64,000 bases of DNA, from positions 274,814-338,813 of the forward strand of contig JAKLDG010000001.1 in assembly GCA_022703645.1 (NCBI GenBank). The letters run 5' to 3'. The notes beneath the pieces were generated by a model. That model was not told the DNA's origin, did no database searches, and worked only from the letters and a program-made list of their open reading frames with translations. Within the stretch, counting starts at the first letter, position 1, and each line of letters starts with the position of its first letter. Position numbers and translations under genes: made by a program. Source of the stretch: Patescibacteria group bacterium. GTDB taxonomy: Bacteria > Patescibacteriota > JACPGU01. Below, in pieces: positions 1-58,178 of the stretch.

Positions 1-1033
1 TGTCCAGTTTATTCATAAATCCAAGTGAATGTGACGAGAATATTAATTGAGCCTTTTTATTTTTATCTTCATCAATAAAATAACCAATAAGTTTATTTAA
101 AGCTTCCGGATGAAAACCAGTTTCAAGCTCGTCAATAATAACAACATTATTATTTTTCAATGCACTTAGGATATTTGCCATTACAAAGAATAATGATTTA
201 GTGCCTCTCGATTCATATCCAAAATCCAGTTTGTTATTTTCTGTTTTAGTAGAGTGAACGCCTTGTACGGTTATAGAGAATCCCTTTTCTCTGACATCTT
301 CTTTGATTTCAAAACTATTTAACCCAATATCAAAATGGCGAATAAAATTTTCTACTTCTTTTTTTAGTTCAGAATCACTTAAATAAACCTTAAGTGCATC
401 AATTTGATGCATAACATGATTTATTTCGCCTCTTTCATTAATGTTGGTTTTAAATCCTAAGAAATAATCATAAACACTGTTTATGATATCAACGCTATAA
501 GTAGATTTCTTTATAAAGGCTATAAAAGAAACATCCTCTCTTATTTTTGGAAGAGCACTTATAGAAATATTCTTAAAATAATTTTCATTTAACGAATCTA
601 TAGTGCTTAATTGGCGCGAGAATATTTTTATTTTTTTTGAACCCGCTTGGATTGCTTTTATGTATAGGGATTCTTTTGTGATAATGTCTTTTTTTATTGA
701 GAAGTCATAAAAAAACACATTATTATTATGCTCGAATTCAACATAAAAATTTGATAACTTATCATTACCAAAAAAGGTTTTGAAGGCAATGCCTGGCATA
801 AGAGGGAATTCATCATTTATATTTCTGCATACAAAAAACTTTAGAAAACTAAAGAATCTCATGACATTTGTTTTACCCGATGCATTGCCACCAATAAAAC
901 CAGCAATCTTTGTTATTTGGTCGTCAGTCTTCGACTGATAATAGTCGTAAGTTTTTTTCTTTTTCGCTAGAAAACTAATTTCTTGCTCCTTGTTGAAGGA
1001 ATAAAAATTACTAAACTTTACCTTTCTTATCAT
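1..1033 (-). CDS. AAA-family ATPase (AAA_15/AAA_21-like), 3' end beyond window
   Basis: Minus-strand translation from ATG at 1031-1033 gives MIRKVKFSNFYSF...IGGNASGKTN (Walker A GxNxSGKT), later ...VIIDELETGFHPEA (Walker B-like DE plus HP). The reading frame stays open to the window edge. Confidence 0.5.
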   Translation of the reverse strand, partial: MIRKVKFSNFYSFNKEQEISFLAKKKKTYDYYQSKTDDQITKIAGFIGGNASGKTNVMRFFSFLKFFVCRNINDEFPLMPGIAFKTFFGNDKLSNFYVEFEHNNNVFFYDFSIKKDIITKESLYIKAIQAGSKKIKIFSRQLSTIDSLNENYFKNISISALPKIREDVSFIAFIKKSTYSVDIINSVYDYFLGFKTNINERGEINHVMHQIDALKVYLSDSELKKEVENFIRHFDIGLNSFEIKEDVREKGFSITVQGVHSTKTENNKLDFGYESRGTKSLFFVMANILSALKNNNVVIIDELETGFHPEALNKLIGYFIDEDKNKKAQLIFSSHSLGFMNKLD

Positions 1034-1119
1034 ATTTTTTGAGTTATTATTATTTCTCTAGCTAAGTATATCAGTGATTAAATAATAAGTCAAGTTAATA
1101 CAAAATATTGTATTAAGTC

Positions 1120-1480
1120 CTTAGATAGTCATTCATCTCACGGCTTTGCCGTGCCCCCTCTATAATATAAAAAATCAAATTCGTTTTCCCCTATATAAAA
1201 AAGCCTATCAATATTCCTTATTATAAGAAAAATATTTATTGAATTGCGTATAATGTCTCAGTATATCTGATGTTTCGCTCGATACCAAATTAGTTGAAAA
1301 TAGAAGAGCAGAAATATGGACGAACCCCGAGCCGAGGGGTGAGTCAGATATACTGTGTTAGGCGAGGGATTGATTTACTTACATTATTGAATATATATAA
1401 AAAGTAATCAAGAGCGCAGCGCCCCCTTGAGTTTCAAAAAACAAACTTCTCCTTTATTTAAGAGCTCTTTTGGGATTTTT
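1120..1480 (+). repeat. Modular island repeat, copy A (h1 hairpin 1126-1165; three-way-junction core 1250-1362; reversed AAGAGCTCTT module 1414-1480)
   Basis: Core has stem cagtatatctg/cagatatactg, CTGATGT junction, variable hairpin, AATATGG, a GAGCGA-like box and a GTGTTA tail. It is one of 10 copies. Confidence 0.85.
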
Positions 1481-1572
1481 ATTTTAATTGTTAAACAAGG
1501 ATTAATTTTACAGTTAATGTCAAATATGATAAAATGTGGAAAGAAAAAAAGAAAGGAGCGTGACCTTAACAA

Positions 1573-1958
1573 TGGATAATATGACAGCAGTTGTCTGGGC
1601 AAACAGAACGGAGAGAAGAATCTCCCAAAAAGACCTTCAGAAGATAATAAAGGATCATCTTCGCGAACTTGCGGATATGTATAACAAGTTCACGGACGCC
1701 AGTGATTTCACAAATAATGGCATGGATGTTATAGCCAAAGAAATCAGCGAACGCTTAAAAACCCTCATCGTAACAGGTGGCAACCAGATGGTGTCGGTTT
1801 CGGCGAGCGAAGATGATGTTTCAATAGCGCTCATAGAAATGAGCAAAGAAGGATTCTTCGAGGGCGGGCCGACCGGGTTTTTGGTGGTTGATGTGAAGGG
1901 AAGCCTTACGGAGTTCAAGCTGAAGACGGGAGTCAGAACGAAAACTCGATACGAATAA
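1573..1958 (+). CDS. Hypothetical protein (cassette 1; ~50% GC)
   Basis: ORF 1536..1958. An ATG at 1573 follows the RBS-like gaaaggagcg. GC is clearly higher than the flanks. It is followed by a terminator hairpin and T-run at about 1995-2025. Confidence 0.5.
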
Positions 1959-2017
1959 GTTTTCACACGCAATTCATTACACACAATGTCGAAGCTGGCC
2001 GCTGAGGTCGGCTTTTT

Positions 2018-2215
2018 TTCTTTCCCAAAAATCCCAAAAGAGCTCTAATTAAAATATAAAAAAGTTTGTTTTTGAAATTTCGCCTAATGTTTCGGTATAT
2101 CTGATGTCTAGGCTCGCTACCCAATTAAGTTGATGTAGGAAGAGCATAGATATGGGCGCAGGTTTGCGACTTAGCGAACCGTAGCCAGATATACCGTGTT
2201 ATGTGACGTCATGAA
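2018..2215 (+). repeat. Modular island repeat, copy B (forward AAGAGCTCT module 2018-2085; core 2085-2205)
   Basis: Core stem cggtatatctg/cagatataccg, CTGATGT, hairpin, GATATGG, GTGTTA. Confidence 0.85.
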
Positions 2216-2246
2216 AAATTCTTAATTCGACGATTTTAGTCGAATT

Positions 2247-2273
2247 TTAATCAGGGCAGATTTATTTTTTTAT
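2247..2273. repeat. Left 27-bp terminal inverted repeat flanking the cassette-2 methyltransferase gene
   Basis: ttaatcagggcagatttatttttttat is the exact reverse complement of 3058-3084. Confidence 0.9.
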
Positions 2274-3034
2274 TTCTTGGTTATTATGATTAAGTCGTCC
2301 TTAAAATCTAAGTAATTATTCCTTTGATGTTTTATGATGTTGGCTAAAAACTTCTTTACTTCTGTTGCAGTTGGGAGGGTGTTAGTGTTATGTATAAACC
2401 TATAGTAGTTCTTCAAATCAAAGTTTATTTTCCCGCTCAATATATCGCCCACATACATTCGCATTTTGTAGCGCTTTGTTTTTACAGAAAAGCCCTGTTT
2501 TTTATAAAAATCCGAAATATATTCCGAATAATTAAACTTTGGATACACTTGTTTTATAGCAATGTTATAGTGGTCACTTTCTTCAGGTAAGGTTAATATC
2601 AAAAGCTTACCTTTTTTCTTCAACAAGTCAGTCAGTTTTAACAACTGCTCTTGATAACTCTTTTCATCGGATGCCCAGTAATAATTCGTGTGAGAGGTAA
2701 AAATATAATCATATTTTTCATCGGTTTTTAGTTTGGATAGGGGTGCAGTGAATAGCTTTCCTATATTATTCTCGGGCGATAAAAATGTTTTCGCGTACGA
2801 CAGAGCTTTTTTGTTCGGTTCCAATAGATCGCATGAATAATCATACTCCAATCTGTCTAATATCTGTTTTGTAGTATGACCTTCGCCACATCCAATATCT
2901 AAAATCTTTCCACCTTTTATCTCTTTAACTATACCAAATACAATACCGAACCAGTCTTCGGTTAAGGCTCTGATATATATATTCTCATATACTTCTGCGA
3001 ATTGTTTTTCTCCCCAAAAATCCCATTTTGTCAT
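2270..3034 (-). CDS. Class I SAM-dependent methyltransferase (cassette 2)
   Basis: 254 aa with motif I ILDIGCGEGHTT. It is bounded by perfect 27-bp inverted repeats. Confidence 0.65.
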   Translation of the reverse strand: MTKWDFWGEKQFAEVYENIYIRALTEDWFGIVFGIVKEIKGGKILDIGCGEGHTTKQILDRLEYDYSCDLLEPNKKALSYAKTFLSPENNIGKLFTAPLSKLKTDEKYDYIFTSHTNYYWASDEKSYQEQLLKLTDLLKKKGKLLILTLPEESDHYNIAIKQVYPKFNYSEYISDFYKKQGFSVKTKRYKMRMYVGDILSGKINFDLKNYYRFIHNTNTLPTATEVKKFLANIIKHQRNNYLDFKDDLIIITKK

Positions 3035-3057
3035 AAATATATGTATTTTATTATATC

Positions 3058-3084
3058 ATAAAAAAATAAATCTGCCCTGATTAA
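3058..3084. repeat. Right 27-bp terminal inverted repeat (partner of 2247-2273)
   Basis: ataaaaaaataaatctgccctgattaa. Confidence 0.9.
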
Positions 3085-3109
3085 TTTTGCGTGAGCTACG
3101 CAAAAAAGA

Positions 3110-3441
3110 ATTTTTTATTATGTCACATAATGTCTCCGAGTATCTGATGTCTTTGATTTCCTTCAATATTACATTAAATATAAAAGGAAAGCAAAGATAT
3201 GGGTTGAGCGACGGCAGGAGCGAACCAGATACTCGGTGTTGGGCGACCCGAACGAGCTATTCACTTTATTAAATGTAAAAAGCGAGTGAGAGTGCAACGC
3301 GGTGCAAACGTCCATTTTCTTTTTCCTTTATTTATTGCTGGCTGTAACCACTCATAGTATTAGTAATTATAAGAAAATTTTGCTTCTCCATTTTTGGGCG
3401 AGGTCAGAGGGGATTCAGGGGTGAATGACCGAAGCCCAAAA
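3110..3441 (+). repeat. Modular island repeat, copy C (core 3125-3245; tail module; GGGG-loop hairpin 3392-3441)
   Basis: Core stem ccgagtatctg/cagatactcgg, a compensatory variant of copy A. The 3' module is ttttgggcgaggtcagaggggattcaggggtgaatgaccgaagcccaaaa. Confidence 0.85.
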
Positions 3442-3533
3442 TCATAAATGTTTTCAAAAAAATGTTATTTAAGGTATAATATTTGTTGAACAATAAGTTG
3501 TACCCTAAAAAACGAAAAAAGGAGGTGGTGGTT

Positions 3534-4403
3534 GTGATAAAGTTTTCCAATGGTCATGCCTTTGAATACATGACAGCAAGTGGTGCGTTGGGTTTCGACG
3601 GAAAAGGTTGGCCATGGGAAAAACCGTGGCACTGGCTCGGACTTTTTGACCCGACACTCTTTACTTCGGTAACCAAAACATTGACGCTTCAACCAAGGGA
3701 AGGAAATCTGCGGTGGTATAATCCGCTCCGATGTTTGCGGTTCGTCAGCGGTGGGGTCGTCAATGCAGTTGGTTTGTCAAATCATGGCGTTGATTGGTGG
3801 TGCAATAAGATTGGTCCATCAGTCACTTCCAAAAAAATTCCTTTGGTCGCTTCAATTTTTGGGGAACCAGAGGAATTAGTAGAAATGGCAAGAATGCTGG
3901 ACGGTTTTGACTTGGTCGGACTGGAAATCAATGCATCATGTCCGAACACTGAAACTTGCATTCTGCAAGATACTACGAGAGTAATTGCAAGTTGCGAAGC
4001 GGTCAAAACCAATTCACGCCTACCACTGATTCTGAAAGTATCAGTTACTCACGATGTTCCACGAATCACGAAAGAGGTCGAGGGTCTCATTGACGCAATT
4101 TCGATCAATAGCGTTCCTTGGTCAATGGCTTTTCCAAATCGCAGAAGCCCTCTCGAAAATCTCGGAAACGGTGGCGTATCAGGTAAAGTTGCCCAACCGT
4201 TCACGTGGGGCTTGGTCAAAAAAATTACCGAATTAACAAGTATTCCGGTAATCGGACCGAGCGTTTGGGACTTCGACGACCTCGAAAAAGTCAGAAATTT
4301 TGGTGCGAAGGCCGTCAGTTTTGGTTCTGTCTTTCTGTATCGTCCGTGGAGTCCGACGCTGTATGTTCGGAAAGAACAAAAATTCAAACGATTAAGGGTA
4401 TAG
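3534..4403 (+). CDS. Dihydroorotate dehydrogenase-family TIM-barrel flavoprotein (PyrD-like; cassette 3)
   Basis: NAVGLSNHGVDWW and LEINASCPN, the class-1 DHOD active-site Cys motif. The likely start is GTG at 3534 after GGAGGTG; the ORF track began at an upstream TTG. GC is about 47%. A terminator sits at 4404-4440. Confidence 0.55.
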   Translation: MIKFSNGHAFEYMTASGALGFDGKGWPWEKPWHWLGLFDPTLFTSVTKTLTLQPREGNLRWYNPLRCLRFVSGGVVNAVGLSNHGVDWWCNKIGPSVTSKKIPLVASIFGEPEELVEMARMLDGFDLVGLEINASCPNTETCILQDTTRVIASCEAVKTNSRLPLILKVSVTHDVPRITKEVEGLIDAISINSVPWSMAFPNRRSPLENLGNGGVSGKVAQPFTWGLVKKITELTSIPVIGPSVWDFDDLEKVRNFGAKAVSFGSVFLYRPWSPTLYVRKEQKFKRLRV

Positions 4404-4446
4404 TGGCACCCTGTCATAAATGACGAAGCCACTTTTTATTTTCCCC

Positions 4447-4834
4447 TTAAATAGTCCTTCATCTCACAGCTTTGCTGTGCCCCCTATAAATAAAATAAAA
4501 AAGCAAAATTTTCCCTTTGTTAGAAGAAAATAAATATTCAGTCATCACAAACCTTGCCAGCAAAATATAAGAAAAGAAAATGTATGTCGCCCAATGTTTC
4601 CGAGTATCTGATGTTGCTGATTATTTCTACCTTTATTTTATTATATAAAAGAAAAATCAGCAATATGGGTTGAGGGGCGAGCCGAGCCCCGAACCAGATA
4701 CTCGGTGTTAGGCGAGGGTTCATTTCCCCTTCATTATTAGATTAAATATAAAAGGGGGAATGAAAGCGCAGCGCCCCCTTGAGTTTCAAAAAACAAACGT
4801 CACCTCTATCTAAGAGCTCTTTTGGGATTTTTTG
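4447..4834 (+). repeat. Modular island repeat, copy D (h1 hairpin 4450-4493; core 4592-4712; reversed AAGAGCTCTT module 4766-4834)
   Basis: Core stem ccgagtatctg/cagatactcgg. Its internal hairpin is ttgctgattatttct...agaaaaatcagcaa. Confidence 0.85.
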
Positions 4835-4860
4835 GCTCTGGCGAATTGACCAAAAAAAGC

Positions 4861-4889
4861 TTGACAGAGCCACAAATATGTGATACAAT
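4861..4889 (+). promoter_or_regulatory. Sigma70-like promoter for cassette 4 (TTGACA-17-TACAAT)
   Basis: ttgacagagccacaaatatgtgatacaat lies upstream of an AAGGAGG RBS. Confidence 0.6.
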
Positions 4890-4939
4890 GATTATGTAAA
4901 AAATTTAATGCCCGAGTGGCATATAAGGAGGAAAGGACA

Positions 4940-5218
4940 TTGAAAACAAAGAAAGAGTTAATCGAAGAGAAAAGCGACGGTGTGTTCGGCGCTATGACAG
5001 GTCTGGTGCAGTTTGCTTCGCTGGTAAGTGATGAGGAATTCGCACTGCTGTGCGATAACATTCCCAGCGGCGAACATCTCTGGCTGGACTTCAAGAAGTA
5101 CCGCGACTCAAAGTTTGAAGGTTTCGGTATGTTGCACTATTTTCTTGGCAAGCTGGTAAAAGTCAAGCCAGAGATAGCCACGAAACTCGGGTTCGATCCC
5201 GAAACGGTTGCTCTTTAG
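4940..5218 (+). CDS. Hypothetical small protein (cassette 4; ~50% GC)
   Basis: ORF 4916..5218. TTG at 4940 is 7 nt after aaggaggaaagg. It is followed by a terminator. Confidence 0.4.
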   Translation: MKTKKELIEEKSDGVFGAMTGLVQFASLVSDEEFALLCDNIPSGEHLWLDFKKYRDSKFEGFGMLHYFLGKLVKVKPEIATKLGFDPETVAL

Positions 5219-10397: not shown

Positions 10398-10790
10398 ATG
10401 ATCTTTAAGAACTTACAATTGGAAACAGGCGACTTTGTTGCGTTTCAAACAGAGGCTGTTCCGCTTCCGGAAGTTCAGGCGGCTGTCATCGGTATTGAGG
10501 ATGGCGTACTCGAAGTCATGAGTACCTTGCTCGCACCATTCCAGCACAACGGGAAATTTACAGAAGACGAGGTAGGCCAAATCATGGTCGTCTATCCATC
10601 AGCGATTGCCATTCCTCGGGAGTCTCGAGGCAAAAACTTCTCTAAACACCAAGGTGTATCCGTCATCATCAAGGGCGGAGAGGAACATCGGGGTGAAGTT
10701 GTTGCTGCGTTCGACGGTATCGTCGTGGCACGCAGAAGCGATGGTGAGCTGATCACCGGCGGAGCTTCGCATTTCAATGCTGTTGCCTAA
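10398..10790 (+). CDS. Hypothetical protein, 130 aa (cassette 9; ~50% GC)
   Basis: ATG with RBS. GC is well above the flanks. A terminator follows at about 10815-10846. Confidence 0.5.
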   Translation: MIFKNLQLETGDFVAFQTEAVPLPEVQAAVIGIEDGVLEVMSTLLAPFQHNGKFTEDEVGQIMVVYPSAIAIPRESRGKNFSKHQGVSVIIKGGEEHRGEVVAAFDGIVVARRSDGELITGGASHFNAVA

Positions 10791-10842
10791 GAATCGACAG
10801 CAAGTCCTGCTAATTGAGCGCACGACCTACGGGTACGGCGCT

Positions 10843-11135
10843 TTTTTCTTCCCTAAAAATCCCAAAAGAGCTCTAATTAAAATATAAAAAAGTTTGTTTT
10901 TTGAAATTTCGCCTAACGTTTCGGCATATCTGATGTTTGCCGTAGCGTAGCGAAGGCAAATATGGGTGGAGGCTTTTGTATAAAAGCCGTAACCAGATAT
11001 GCCGTGTTATGTGATGTGCATGTTTTACTTTAATCCTGATAGCAATCGGGATTGCTCTAAAAAAGAATTTTAATTTTGTTTTTTTGTTTTGGATTTTGGG
11101 CAGAGGGGTTAGGGGTGAATGCCCAAAATCCAAAA
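10843..11135 (+). repeat. Modular island repeat, copy J (forward AAGAGCTCT module 10843-10918; core 10915-11012; GGGG-loop hairpin 11089-11129)
   Basis: Core stem cggcatatctg/cagatatgccg. The perfect hairpin is ggattttgggc-agaggggttaggggtgaa-tgcccaaaatcc. Confidence 0.85.
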
Positions 11136-11139
11136 CTCC

Positions 11140-11547
11140 TTATTCTGCTAATAATTTAAACACTAAGCTAAATATTTTTGGTGAAAAATCTTTATAAATT
11201 AACTCTCTCGTCTCGTCCTCACCAAATGACCAAAATTTACCATTAATTTCTAAACCAGTAGGATAATGACTCTCGTGAAATAATTTATTTCTTATTTCTC
11301 TTAAAGATTCTAAAAATTTAAGTTCCGCGTCATCAATTAAATCCTTTTCTTTAGCTTCTGTAATTATTCTATGAAAATTGCCGTCAATTTTATTGACAGA
11401 AAATTTTATAATCTGTTCTGACAAAACAAATAGACAAGCAAGCGCAGAAAAGTAATTTTCTTGTTCATAAGAATTTTGTGCCTCGAAACATAATTTCCCA
11501 AAAATATGGTCTCTTTCATTTATTTTTGCAATTATATCGGTATTCAT
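11140..11547 (-). CDS. Hypothetical protein, 135 aa, co-oriented with and abutting the C5-methyltransferase gene
   Basis: ORF only. Its stop is 2 nt from the methyltransferase start. Confidence 0.4.
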   Translation of the reverse strand: MNTDIIAKINERDHIFGKLCFEAQNSYEQENYFSALACLFVLSEQIIKFSVNKIDGNFHRIITEAKEKDLIDDAELKFLESLREIRNKLFHESHYPTGLEINGKFWSFGEDETRELIYKDFSPKIFSLVFKLLAE

Positions 11548-11549
11548 GT

Positions 11550-12527
11550 TTATTTCAAATCAGCCATTATTTTTTTTGCTAAATGGTGGGCAAAATTTAC
11601 TGCGACAGCATTTCCAATCATTTTATATCCGTCGGCAATATCACGATATTTAAAAATAAAATTATCAGGGAATGTTTGAATCCTTGCACATTCACGAACA
11701 GACAAGCGACGATATAAATGTTCTTTTCCGGGAACAAAAATTCTTTTATTTTGACTGATAAATTTCATTTTCGGAGCTTGGGGATGAATTGGAGCATGGC
11801 GACCACCGGCTTGAATGGTAAAAGAAGGTTCATCCCATGAGCGAACACGATTTCGCGACATATAAATTGAAGAAAAACCGCCATTCATGTATTCGTGATT
11901 TGGAATTTTTAACACATCGCCATTTGTCTTATTTTTATCTAACGCAGGTTTTGCTAAACGCAAATCATAAATAGCGTCTTTCAATACTGGTTTATATTTT
12001 TGCGGTTCTGGAAATTCAAATTTTTTCTTTAGTTTTTTATTATATCCAACAATAATGACACGCAATCTATCTTCAGGAACATCATAATCATTTGCATTTA
12101 ATAATTTGCAGGAAATTTCATATCCAGCATTTTCAAATTCTTTTATTATATTTGAAAAAGCCTCTTTGTGTTTAGGGTGAAGAATACCCGATACATTTTC
12201 TGCAAGAAAAAATTTTGGTTGTTTTTCCTTTAATAAACGAATGTAATCATAAAATAATTTTCCTCTTTTATCATTTATTCCACGTCCAGCCCCAGCCTCG
12301 CTCCAACTTTGACAAGGTGGTCCGCCAATGATTCCGTCAACATCGGGAATTTCAGAAGCAGGGACGTCGACAATACTTCTTTTATCAAGTTTTGTTTTTG
12401 GAAAATTGTGTTCAAAAGTTTCCCAAATTGTGGGGTCATATTCATTTGCCCAGACGACATGAAAACCAGCTTTTTCAAAGCCTAAATCAAGTCCTCCTGC
12501 ACCTGTAAACAATGAAGCTATTTTCAT
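11550..12527 (-). CDS. DNA (cytosine-5)-methyltransferase
   Basis: Motif I FTGAGGLDLGF, motif IV GGPPCQSWS, ENV. Confidence 0.9.
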   Translation of the reverse strand: MKIASLFTGAGGLDLGFEKAGFHVVWANEYDPTIWETFEHNFPKTKLDKRSIVDVPASEIPDVDGIIGGPPCQSWSEAGAGRGINDKRGKLFYDYIRLLKEKQPKFFLAENVSGILHPKHKEAFSNIIKEFENAGYEISCKLLNANDYDVPEDRLRVIIVGYNKKLKKKFEFPEPQKYKPVLKDAIYDLRLAKPALDKNKTNGDVLKIPNHEYMNGGFSSIYMSRNRVRSWDEPSFTIQAGGRHAPIHPQAPKMKFISQNKRIFVPGKEHLYRRLSVRECARIQTFPDNFIFKYRDIADGYKMIGNAVAVNFAHHLAKKIMADLK

Positions 12528-16482: not shown

Positions 16483-16511
16483 TTGACATAATATTTATTG
16501 TGTGATAAAAT
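16483..16511 (+). promoter_or_regulatory. Sigma70-like promoter (TTGACA-17-TAAAAT) upstream of the rSAM operon leader
   Basis: ttgacataatatttattgtgtgataaaat. Confidence 0.55.
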
Positions 16512-56166: not shown

Positions 56167-56505
56167 ATGTCTTCTACTAGGATAGAACAGGTAAATGAAC
56201 TCATCCAGCAGGAATTAGGAAAAATAATTCTCGAAAATATTGAATTTGAACCCGGAGTTTTAGTTACTATAACTCATGTTTCCACTTCCGATACACTGGA
56301 AAACGCTACAGTTTGGATAAGTATTTTTCCGGAAGGCAAGACAGGGAGCTCTCTAGAAACTTTAAACAAAGAGATAGGCCATCTCCAAAAGTTTTTAAAT
56401 CGAAAATTATTCTTGAAATTTGTCCCAAAGATCGCTTTTAAAGTTGATACTTCGGAAGTTTATGCGAGTGAAATAGAGGAAGTATTTAAGAAAATAGAAG
56501 AGTAG
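56167..56505 (+). CDS. rbfA: Ribosome-binding factor A
   Basis: 112 aa, RIEQVNELIQQELGKII...ITHV. Confidence 0.65.
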   Translation: MSSTRIEQVNELIQQELGKIILENIEFEPGVLVTITHVSTSDTLENATVWISIFPEGKTGSSLETLNKEIGHLQKFLNRKLFLKFVPKIAFKVDTSEVYASEIEEVFKKIEE

Positions 56506-56527
56506 AACACTATTTAAAATAAGATAC

Positions 56528-56556
56528 TTGACACAATTTAAAATTTATGTTATATT
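56528..56556 (+). promoter_or_regulatory. Near-consensus promoter (TTGACA-17-TATATT) driving the GC-rich non-coding unit
   Basis: ttgacacaatttaaaatttatgttatatt. Confidence 0.65.
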
Positions 56557-56563
56557 GTTTTTA

Positions 56564-57553
56564 TTCCCCTGCGTGTGATTTTACCGCAGGGTAGAAAGGA
56601 GCCCTTTTAAAACTGAATAGAAGTATGCCTCACTACTTTGTAGGAGGTACATTATAAATTTAGGAGGAATTGCCTATGCGCACGTTCTGCACAATGGGGC
56701 CCCCGATCGGGGCGAAAGTCAAACACACTATATTGATGACGACTCACATCGGCACCGCCGGCGCGATCGCGGCCACGTAACCGGACGAAACGGGTCCAAT
56801 AAATCTATTTAAAGGTGCACGCGGACGGGCTATTATACGGCTTGCGCGAGGAGATTCCAAAGGCGTAAATAAAAGTATTGCTTCTCGCTAACACCGTTCT
56901 CGCTACGGGCGCCAAATGGCTTACCCGTACCGAACGCACGCGCAAACAGCGGCGGCTTCTTTGACGCACGCGGCACACAGTGCGAAGCCCATGCGGCACT
57001 GTAAAATTACCGGTTCCCGAGTGGACCGGAAGTAGTTGAGCTGCGGGAGAGAGCAAGATTCGGCGCCGCCGTCCTGGCTAATAGTCAGGGTAGCGAGCGA
57101 CGCCGGCGGGCTCTCTCCCGGGATCCGCTGCTGTGAATTCGGCGAGGTGAAAAATGAGGTTAATTCTTTATCAGTCCGAAAATACCAAAGCAGCCGAAAA
57201 GGCTGTCACCGCAAGATAGACCGACGGTGTGAGCGCGGTCGCATCCTTCTAATTTAAACTCGGCAAACAAAGAGGCAGACCCGCCCGATAGGGCACGATG
57301 GGTCATAACCTCGATCAAGCGCCGAGAAAAAAGGAAAAACTGACCCTTATCCGGGTCATGTGCATTCGCCGGTTAAAAGTCCACGTCCCATAAGAGGGAT
57401 ATGGCTATGCCACGAAAGTTGTGGTCTCGGCGAGATAACGCACAAACCAAAAAAGCGCGGTCGTCACCGCGGTATACAAACAGACCGTAGATGGCTTACG
57501 TTAACGCTATCAAATCCAAATCAAGCAGGCCGAGAGGCCTGCTGTTTTATTTT
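56564..57553 (+). ncRNA. Candidate large (~1 kb) GC-rich structured non-coding RNA of unknown class
   Basis: By eye the segment is much more GC-rich (above 50%) than the rest of the window. No ORF exceeds 83 aa in any frame. It has a promoter at its 5' end and two tandem intrinsic terminators at its 3' end. Many local and long-range complementary segments are visible, for example cgggagagag at about 57044 pairing with ctctctcccg at about 57110. Confidence 0.55.
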
Positions 57554-57580
57554 CAACCGTTTTCAAAAACGGTTTTTTTA
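57523..57580 (+). terminator. Tandem intrinsic terminators ending the GC-rich unit
   Basis: aagcaggccgagaggcctgctgtttt then caaccgttttcaaaaacggttttttt. Confidence 0.75.
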
Positions 57581-57782
57581 TTGCTTAAAAATAGATTTGA
57601 GGGTAAAATGAATACAGAATTTCTAATATCTAAATTCTAAATACTAAACAAGCGCAAATCTCAAAATTCAAAAAATAAATTTGAATTTTAGTATTATTTA
57701 GAAATTAGAGTTTGGAATTTAGGATTTTATGTTTTGGTGCAGTTAAAGTTTGGTAGAAAAATATTAATAAATTAGCGGCAAA

Positions 57783-58178
57783 ATGCGATTAAACAACTTC
57801 CTTTGGATATTTGAAATACTAACCTGTGTATTTTGGGTTGTTTTTCTATCCATTTTATTTTTTATCAATCCCTATAATGCCAAAGCGGAGATTTTTATAC
57901 TATTTTTTATTAGTCTTTTAATTGCGCTTGCCGGTACTTGGACGATTACCGAGTTTCGATTAGTTACGAAATATCGTGGAATGGATGCATTAAACCGAAA
58001 GCTTTCAAATTCATTCCGTCATGGCTTTATGACTTCACTTGTTATTTCGGGGTTACTATTTATGCAAGGATTGAGGGTTTTGAAAGTTTGGGACGCTGTG
58101 ATGTTTGTTTTGGCAATAGCGCTTTTTGAGGCATACTTTTTGACGAGAGGCAATTTTATGTCAGGTGAAAATAAATAA
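57783..58178 (+). CDS. Hypothetical integral membrane protein
   Basis: Four predicted TM segments. Confidence 0.4.
   Translation: MRLNNFLWIFEILTCVFWVVFLSILFFINPYNAKAEIFILFFISLLIALAGTWTITEFRLVTKYRGMDALNRKLSNSFRHGFMTSLVISGLLFMQGLRVLKVWDAVMFVLAIALFEAYFLTRGNFMSGENK

Follow-up and report, generated by a model that had tools for sequence, protein, structure and literature searches.

A GC-rich promoter-to-terminator unit in a Patescibacteria clade: a candidate structured RNA with a ribosome-loading short ORF

Background

Dual-function RNAs are known from several bacterial systems (for example, RNAIII/hld of Staphylococcus, Pel/sagA of Streptococcus, SgrS/SgrT and SR1/SR1P), as are protein-sponge RNAs of the Csr/Rsm type such as CsrB and RsmZ. 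Extensive sequence conservation and a conserved fold are the defining traits of the large RNAs of the GOLLD, ROOL and OLE classes. Here we analyse a 64-kb stretch of DNA (64,000 nucleotides, referred to below as the window) from a bacterium of the Patescibacteria or Candidate Phyla Radiation (CPR), with a mean GC content of about 37%. Between rbfA and the gene for a 131-aa protein it carries a GC-rich island, for which the closest known kind of element is, by analogy, a dual-function RNA such as RNAIII/hld. A preliminary description of the window, made from its letters, had proposed this island as a promoter-to-terminator unit and a candidate for a large structured RNA.

Two further lines of earlier work are relevant. 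The approach based on GC-rich intergenic regions (GC-IGR) found large RNAs (GOLLD, ROOL, HEARO and raiA) as GC-rich intergenic outliers (PMC11109978). The gene for OLE RNA (RF01071), itself a large RNA, lies next to the gene for the small four-helix membrane protein OapA (PMC11332333).

Anatomy of the unit

On balance we favour the view that the island is an autonomously transcribed, structured RNA with one or more short open reading frames (ORFs) onto which ribosomes load, and that it represents a new family. Its anatomy, as read from sequence signals, is that of a highly expressed, degradation-resistant RNA: some 990 nt long, heavily base-paired and probably both abundant and long-lived. The analysis computed sequence signals, synteny, conservation of composition, excess predicted structure, covariation within modules and the enrichment of Shine-Dalgarno (SD) sequences before AUG codons, and found neither a protein gene nor a known RNA family. 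The unit has the following parts (window coordinates; L100 is a relative whose RbfA is 87% identical).

56528-56556, + strand: promoter, with -35 element TTGACA (56528-56533), a 17-nt spacer ending in TGT (extended -10) and -10 element TATATT (56551-56556); 11 of 12 matches to consensus
56563-56675, + strand: 5' leader, with terminal hairpin 56567-56576/56583-56591, block UAGAAAGGAGCCCUUUUAAAA, second hairpin 56627-56636/56640-56648 and SD sequence AGGAGG at 56662-56667
56676-56780, + strand: short ORF of 34 codons, MRTFCTMGPPIGAKVKHTILMTTHIGTAGAIAAT; AUG 8 nt after AGGAGG
56757-56772, + strand: conserved block GCCGGCGCGAUCGCGG (= GCCGGCGCGATCGCGG) inside the 3' end of the short ORF; identical in L100, all third codon positions included
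56824-56858, + strand: conserved block GACGGGCuAUUAUACGGCuUGCGCGAGGAGAUUCC; 33 of 35 positions identical in L100
56781-57523, + strand: GC-rich body of about 55% GC with some 20 predicted helices; the GC-rich stretch also takes in the short ORF from about 56678
Predicted helices of the body: 56900-56933; 57010-57029; a 75-nt nested hairpin at 57045-57119; a domain at 57259-57326; a hairpin at 57342-57357; a three-way junction at 57360-57443
57234-57250, + strand: distal strand CGCGGUCGC-A-UCCUUCU, the predicted partner of block positions 56763-56771 and of the SD at 56662-56668
57524-57581, + strand: tandem terminators, 57524-57543 (8 bp, 6 of them GC, with a U-run) and 57555-57574 (8 bp, with a U-run)

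The near-consensus promoter of the preliminary description is therefore present, with a TG before the -10 element in addition, and its two consecutive intrinsic terminators are also found. The promoter is one of four + strand sites of this grade in the 64 kb, and transcription would start near 56563. It is the single strong promoter on the + strand of the island, where internal terminators are represented by weak candidates only. Three other consensus-grade promoters (TTGACA-17/16-TAnAAT) were noted on the + strand of the window, at 4861, 16483 and 20869; that at 16483 also has an extended -10.

The claim that the segment is GC-rich holds for the whole window: with up to 58% GC the island is its strongest outlier and its GC maximum (0.58 versus a mean of 0.367 and a standard deviation of 0.048 in 400-nt intervals). 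In 300-nt intervals from 56500 to 57549 the GC content is 0.44-0.58, compared with 0.25-0.43 in the flanks. The earlier limit of 83 codons for open frames was confirmed on both strands: the longest start-to-stop ORF in the island encodes 83 aa and the longest stop-to-stop frame has 100 codons. Sequence identical to the window locus is contained in three other assemblies, and the locus is therefore no artefact of a single-sample assembly. ENA assemblies with identical contigs are ERZ27257455, ERZ27257480 and ERZ795055.

There is no second copy of the island within the 64 kb and there are no internal direct repeats. Searches of phage and plasmid collections with blastn gave no similarity to it. 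We therefore rejected a repeat, a miniature inverted-repeat transposable element (MITE), a repetitive extragenic palindromic (REP) type of element and phage or plasmid DNA, as there are no further copies and no match to a mobile-element record.

The structural features of an RNAIII-like RNA are all present as predicted from the sequence: a promoter and terminator of its own, and an SD-led short ORF in the 5' part of a longer, multi-hairpin RNA. Like other dual-function RNAs the island is also restricted to a lineage, and its primary sequence evolves fast between related species. It differs in that the RNA would exceed RNAIII two- to threefold in length, conservation of the peptide cannot be demonstrated, and there is no target-pairing motif such as C-rich loops (CCUCC is not enriched). 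Its host is an AT-rich CPR bacterium, and what is conserved is GC content, not sequence.

Conservation among relatives

Relatives of the locus were gathered through homologues of RbfA, PheS and the 131-aa protein, and with a degenerate DNA pattern designed on a motif that is conserved in the 131-aa protein. This pattern retrieved seven loci from a metagenome collection and had no match in viral contigs. A scan of GTDB with PheS yielded L012 as the sole close relative. In total there are twelve distinct lineages including the window, with PheS 58-75% identical to that of the window. The unit is specific to one Patescibacteria clade, whose members are labelled CPR3, Microgenomates or Saccharibacteria in public records. 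Among distant low-GC lineages (fetched loci of at most 6 kb on either side of pheS), a GC-rich patch occurs only in two Buchananbacteria loci; these patches contain ORFs of 172-195 aa and are thus not comparable to the islands.

A GC-rich stretch of 0.4-1.6 kb and 54-60% GC lies upstream of the 131-aa gene in all twelve lineages with upstream sequence (the shorter stretches are those cut by contig ends). The host genomes have about 36-41% GC; L106, at 43%, is an exception and looks like a chimeric contig. The transcripts deduced would be about 920-1570 nt long. All 11 distinct islands with a 5' end have an exact TTGACA, a spacer of 17 (in one case 16) and TGnTAnAAT, and those with a 3' end have one or two terminators at the same relative position, whose U-tract enters the conserved promoter of the 131-aa gene. 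In L004 (4163-5828) the island consists of two complete promoter-terminator units, in an order that is permuted relative to L005.

In three islands a second promoter of this kind lies about 95 nt upstream. In these cases (L007, 2258-2400; L092, 8690-8840; L102, 3820-3960) a conserved near-palindrome, CTTATATGTCACATAAG, lies between the two consensus promoters. The arrangement looks like the P1/P2 promoters of rrn operons or an operator site.

Composition is conserved and sequence, for the most part, is not. A search for homologues was proposed in the preliminary description: nhmmer with the window island against its relatives gave nothing at E<0.01, and sensitive blastn between islands matched essentially promoters, terminators and the downstream promoter only. 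Between the window and L100 the leader and the blocks at 56757-56772 and 56824-58 can be aligned, while the rest between them is unalignable and rich in indels. The leader is nearly identical in the two from the start site to the AUG, although the four-fold degenerate sites of rbfA are 0.45 identical. In L099, whose 131-aa protein is 84% identical to that of the window, the last 500 nt share only the downstream promoter.

When the window is compared with its closest relatives, identity at the four-fold degenerate sites of the flanking genes is down to 0.39-0.47, which amounts to saturation. The high GC content can therefore not have been passively inherited in these AT-rich genomes. Free drift would lead to the 15-30% GC of other spacers, yet 54-60% is kept in all lineages, which argues that composition or pairing is selected. 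By these comparisons there is purifying selection on the short blocks and on all expression signals, and most of the body appears free to vary in sequence.

Modules are shared among lineages in a patchwork. We noted that the 3' domains of L007 (3555-3800) and L092 (9915-10150) are 82-90% identical though PheS is 74% identical and the rest of the two islands has diverged. Both come from one lake-sediment sample series. A recent exchange between lineages or an unusually constrained module are possible explanations.

Four lineages have an insertion between rbfA and the island, a gene of 236-288 aa (L004, 3296-4162; L005, 10323-11132; L102, 3000-3710; L105, 2561-3391), with a faint or weak phosphoribosyltransferase-like match in L005 and L102. 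The island is therefore linked to the downstream 131-aa gene and not to rbfA.

Unusually many contigs, some of them of 14 and 15 kb, begin or end inside the island (L002, L003, L011, L012, L093, L095, L099, L100 and L101), which suggests loss of coverage or graph branching due to GC bias, strong structure or strain variation. In L106 (positions 1-5150; ENA ERZ511474 NODE_1493), genes of 60-70% GC (topoisomerase, radical SAM, DUF116/polyprenyl synthase) lead straight into roughly the final 400 nt of the island, after which come CPR genes of 20-35% GC. L095 (1-200), an independent contig from JGI, starts 87 nt before the L106 junction and is identical to it. Either assemblers have joined a high-GC organism to a CPR genome through the island or the junction is a real horizontal transfer.

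Predicted folding

A folding energy of -378 kcal/mol was computed for the whole island transcript of the window (z=-9.9 for the + strand, -6.8 for the - strand). For the GC-rich stretch alone (56678-57472), z is -5.7 (+) and -3.7 (-) against dinucleotide shuffles. The eight segments of the window that served as controls, among them five annotated genes, range from +0.7 to -2.8. Complete GC-rich bodies of all islands have + strand values of -2.6 to -6.6 (two partial ones have -0.6 and -1.8), and folding of the - strand is weaker than that of the + strand in six of ten islands.

Complementary segments listed in the preliminary description were all recovered in a partition-function fold. The local helices at 56567-56591, 56699-56713, 57191-57205 and 57342-57357 and the nested long hairpin (57045-57054/57110-57119 and 57061-57072/57093-57105) have pair probabilities of at least 0.91. 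Those of the leader hairpins reach 0.99. At the base of the first of these, C-G pairs of the window are replaced by U-G in L100, which fits pairing of the + strand only. The second keeps its GCCUC/GAGG(C/U) base between the window and L100, and its tip differs. The 3' half of the 56824-56858 block forms the 5' strand of a predicted hairpin with an A-rich loop (56846-56853/56881-56888, probability 0.97).

Two long-range helices, 56763-56771/57234-57242 and, with the SD, 56662-56668/57244-57250, each have a probability of 0.97 in the partition function of this one sequence (L100 ends earlier). Pairing of both the SD and the conserved block with the distal strand would, on this single-sequence prediction, hide the ribosome-binding site once the RNA is fully folded and make translation and full folding mutually exclusive.

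Comparison within modules also makes an RNA structure of the body probable. The 5' hairpin of L007, L102, L104 and L105 has 21 bp, with 94% of cells paired and two compensatory pairs; its G-C/G-U alternation and an invariant U-G are sensible on the + strand only. In the 3' domain of L007 and L092 (250 nt), none of 61 predicted pairs is broken despite a divergence of about 15%, which is mostly in loops. In the domain common to L004 unit 1 and the 3' part of L005, both partners have changed in 17 pairs. Downstream of the first short ORF, L007, L092, L102 and L104 all retain a long hairpin that has an A-rich loop of 18 nt and a stem of differing sequence. Hairpins with GNRA loops number 13 on the + strand and three on the - strand across the islands, with about five expected. 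This excess is modest overall, and the body of the window itself contains none.

The short ORF

The SD-preceded ORF of 34 codons, which had been proposed as an alternative or additional product, is a real feature, and its SD and AUG are kept in the two closest relatives: they occur at the matching aligned position in L100 (ORF of 45 codons) and L101 (44 codons). Over 13 island transcripts, 15 of 30 strong SD-like sites have an ATG 4-13 nt after GGAG compared with an expected 14% (P=4e-6). AAGGAG is found 19 times where 5.2 are expected, and 19 times on the + strand versus once on the - strand. The stop codon of the first ORF occupies the same alignment column in four of five islands (TGA in L007, TAG in L092, and L104 and L105). 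The SD-ATG enrichment, the strand bias of AAGGAG and the aligned SD/AUG and stop positions together suggest that genuine translation start sites are conserved.

The peptides, on the other hand, are not. When they are aligned, the initiator Met is the only invariant residue, and in-frame similarity is no higher than that of the other two matched frames in nine of ten pairs. A phmmer search with the 34-aa peptide against 1.84 billion proteins gave no matches. Start sites are conserved and peptides are not, and what is maintained would therefore be the loading of ribosomes and not a particular peptide. Judged from these signals, 56676-56780 probably loads ribosomes.

Comparison with known RNA families

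The whole window and ten loci were compared with Rfam 15, with no match at the gathering score. At E<=10, a search of 56400-57700 and three other islands returned noise of the terminator type and no RNase P, tmRNA, SRP, OLE, GOLLD or ROOL. This is the covariance search of the island with all Rfam models that the preliminary description had suggested, and it matched no family. ARAGORN found no tRNA and no tmRNA in the 64 kb. The lack of RNase P, tmRNA and SRP hallmarks reported earlier is thus borne out. Group I and II introns have no match in the window at E<=10; a sub-threshold domain-V-like match was seen in L009 only (14.4 bits where 61 are needed, E=6.8).

RNase P (RF00010/RF00011) was rejected, as no covariance-model score at E<=10 was obtained for CR-I to CR-V/P4. 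The RNase P-like strings can be ascribed to chance: the segment 'AAAAGUCCACG' is predicted to pair locally and the 5' P4-like string at 57378-57389 to pair locally with 57396-57406. Membership of GOLLD, ROOL, HEARO or raiA was likewise rejected (no model match at E<=10 in 56400-57700 and none at the gathering score in ten loci). As regards protein genes, a six-frame Pfam scan of the window island gave no match, and single or double reassignments of stop codons gave no consistent long frame in ten islands. A search of the literature for such an RNA in Patescibacteria returned nothing.

The proposal of a large ornate RNA 'such as GOLLD, ROOL or OLE' is not supported. Islands with flanks that are 84-87% identical share no more than the leader and two short blocks. 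A covariance model of the best module (the 3' domain of L007 and L092), run against twelve sources including the window, matched only its two source sequences and had no counterpart in the window or in eight other islands. The length range of about 920-1570 nt and the split unit of L004 also speak against an ornate fold. It is the lack of a conserved core or common fold that sets the element apart from OLE, GOLLD, ROOL and RNase P. The alternative offered at the same time, a new RNA class, is likely. A self-contained promoter-to-terminator unit, without a protein gene, rich in helices and outside Rfam, is supported in all of these points.

Resemblances to these systems remain. As with GOLLD, ROOL, HEARO and raiA, the island came to notice as an intergenic region that is long, rich in GC and free of ORFs within an AT-rich genome, with a size close to that of GOLLD. 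Unlike them it has no model match or conserved core, is variable in length and is not associated with phages or tRNAs (no tRNA in the window; no phage or plasmid similarity).

With OLE and OapA it would share a large structured RNA gene that adjoins a gene for a small membrane protein of four (here predicted) helices, the pair being co-inherited across a clade. OLE, however, has extensive conserved sequence and fold, and the island has no match to its model at the gathering score or at E<=10. The island RNA ends in terminators, and a separate promoter serves the 131-aa gene. OapA is a CNNM/DUF21-like protein with four transmembrane segments and a DxxxD motif; the sequence of the 131-aa protein gives no CNNM/DUF21 or OapA-like signal, and its low-confidence model has no significant fold match. 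The OLE/OapA parallel is thus, by analogy, a lead only.

Like CsrB and RsmZ, the island RNA is predicted to be strongly expressed, ends in a terminator, consists of hairpin modules that vary in number and changes rapidly in both sequence and length, with recurring purine-rich motifs that contain GGA. It differs in that GGAGG is modestly enriched (25 versus 17) and no loop motif is common to all islands. Half of the strong SD sites precede ATG and look like true ribosome-binding sites, unlike CsrB/RsmZ motifs. The idea of an SD sponge was rejected: the enrichment of GGAGG is about 1.5-fold only and CCUCC is not enriched. A search for a repeated loop motif common to all islands found none.

Interpretation and alternatives

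In the mechanism that we propose, transcription would start from the near-consensus extended -10 promoter and a stable hairpin would seal the 5' end of the RNA. The conserved leader would offer a strong SD and AUG, and ribosomes would load on a short ORF with an unconserved peptide. About 800 nt of GC-rich helices would follow, and two terminators would finish the RNA. The expression signals, the leader, the GC-richness and the over-folding are kept while the sequence of the body is not, from which we infer that the body acts through bulk structure. Built from hairpin modules that can be exchanged, it may serve as a scaffold, a decoy or a stabilising domain, as opposed to a conserved ornate or catalytic fold. 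The whole would be a bifunctional RNA of the RNAIII type, in which a 5' part that is translated or binds ribosomes is combined with a structured RNA part.

A more specific proposal, which we advance tentatively, is that of an undescribed RNA class of 0.9-1.6 kb in one CPR clade, in which GC-richness, foldedness and ribosome-loading sites are selected and sequence is near-neutral. It would be a hairpin scaffold or decoy acting with the adjacent membrane protein (an independently arisen, OLE/OapA-like membrane ribonucleoprotein (RNP)) or toward the host cell of these episymbionts.

Several observations weigh against a structured RNA with a ribosome-loading ORF. Transcription, RNA size and stability are read from sequence signals only, and abundance, ribosome loading and any function are likewise inferred. 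The - strand also beats its shuffles, and equals or exceeds the + strand in four islands. Values of z for the weakest islands (-2.6 for L004 unit 2 and -3.3 for L005) overlap the controls (maximum -2.8). Covariation comes from two to five sequences per module with alignments partly fitted to structure; with so few sequences shuffle controls are weak, and 28 of 500 shuffles reach the covariation score observed for the 5' hairpin of the L007 group. In the partition-function folds of ten transcripts each has its own long-range helices, and an architecture common to all islands could not be demonstrated. The lengths of the short ORFs (9-60 codons) are those expected by chance for this composition; translation may be incidental, or the SD-like strings may be structural.

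Two alternatives concern what the functional product would be. The unit could be an mRNA whose functional product is a small protein or several of them (34 aa in the window), the GC-rich remainder being a long, structured, stabilising 3' untranslated region (UTR). It is in fact the leader, SD, AUG and in-ORF block that are best conserved between the window and L100, and not the body. The SD-ATG pairs are strongly non-random, the first-ORF stops of L007, L092, L104 and L105 are aligned, and Gly-Pro codons differ synonymously between the window and L100. We nevertheless regard this as unlikely, given that the ORF frame scores no better than the other two in nine of ten pairs, with only the initiator Met invariant, and that ORF lengths are chance-like, with no homologue among 1.84 billion proteins. 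Neutral sites are saturated, yet the 16-nt block does not differ at any third position, which points to constraint at the nucleotide level. A third-position GC content of about 80% in the ORF (counted from the sequence) is odd for a translated gene at the 37% GC of the window, and 800 nt of 3' sequence that stays GC-rich and over-folded would be left unexplained. It is less probable still that the island is a precursor or cluster of several smaller RNAs, processed or separately transcribed, so that the 1-kb unit is not the functional molecule. The two units of L004, the first of which corresponds to the 3' part of the single unit of L005, would fit such a cluster, as would the patchwork of modules and the 82-90% identical 3' domain of L007 and L092 in otherwise diverged islands. 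The window, by contrast, has one strong promoter, weak candidates only for internal + strand terminators and no known processing signals, and the modules of other lineages are not detectable in it.

The two remaining explanations are very improbable. A protein gene that has decayed, or that was acquired horizontally from a GC-rich donor, would account for the foreign-looking composition. Gene callers place ORFs of 66-225 aa in some islands, and L104 has a GxGxxG-like string with a weak F420_oxidored match (E=0.097). The six-frame Pfam scan is negative, however, no long frame emerges on recoding in the ten islands, and the 225-aa ORF of L009, which is on the minus strand and rich in Arg, Ser and Cys, has no counterpart in other islands by tblastn. 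A pseudogene in AT-rich genomes would be expected to lose GC, yet twelve lineages keep 54-60% together with a consensus promoter and terminator. This reading, of which the preliminary description had named the decayed gene among the findings that would count against its own, is close to refuted. It is equally hard to credit that the island belongs, much diverged, to a known family (RNase P, tmRNA, OLE, GOLLD, ROOL, HEARO, group I or II intron). The size and GC-richness would fit, there are weak P4-like strings (AAAAGUCCA ... ACAGA ... UGGCUUA), and a small membrane-protein gene adjoins as oapA adjoins ole. No such model, however, is matched at E<=10 in the window and three other islands or at the gathering score in ten loci, ARAGORN is negative, the 131-aa protein has no CNNM/DUF21 match, and the islands are unlike one another, contrary to all these families.

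Genomes of CPR bacteria are tiny (roughly 0.9 Mb) and leave little room for non-essential DNA. The clade nevertheless gives 1-1.6 kb to a non-protein unit with expression signals of rRNA grade and about 55-60% GC against strong AT pressure. What is new is likely a clade-restricted bacterial RNA of the large or dual-function kind, with the unusual trait that it conserves its GC content and folding but not its sequence. If transcribed as predicted, it would be among the largest non-ribosomal RNAs of these organisms and would clearly exemplify an RNA that keeps composition and folding while its sequence changes. Such constraint is missed by standard searches based on homology and covariation. It could be relevant to the stability of RNA, to how ribosomes are handled or to membrane-associated RNPs, all in organisms that are not yet genetically tractable.

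Neighbouring genes and other features of the window

The island lies between two groups of genes, as follows.

Upstream: the end of the ribosomal-protein/rpoA operon, with rplM, rpsI and rbfA (rbfA 56167-56505)
57581-57609, + strand: promoter of the downstream operon, TTGCTT-17-TAAAAT, overlapping the U-tract of the second terminator
57783-58178, + strand: gene for a lineage-specific, hydrophobic 131-aa protein with four predicted membrane helices, always directly downstream of the island
Further downstream: pheS, pheT and a class II aminoacyl-tRNA synthetase (tRNA-synt_2) gene

The promoter at 57581-57609 is the best-conserved non-coding sequence of the locus, with 77-88% identity over 35-50 nt in nearly all pairwise comparisons of islands. 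The 131-aa protein matches no Pfam or NCBIfam family, and a comparison with CNNM/DUF21 gave no match at E<=1. Its AlphaFold model has four helices with a predicted local distance difference test (pLDDT) score of 59, and a Foldseek search with this model returned nothing at E<=0.001.

Between the promoter and the start codon of this gene, in its 5' UTR, is an AT-rich imperfect hairpin of about 105 nt (57621-57725, z=-3.5). At the matching position L106 has similar AT-rich repeated 'TCTAAAT' strings.

The window has a second GC bump of about 51%. This is a 130-aa ORF with an SD (10398-10790, + strand) and a promoter-like TTGACA upstream. It adjoins a 135-aa ORF and a C5 cytosine methyltransferase-like gene (11140-11547 and 11550-12527, both on the - strand), and the region 10398-12527 may be a foreign or restriction/defence islet.

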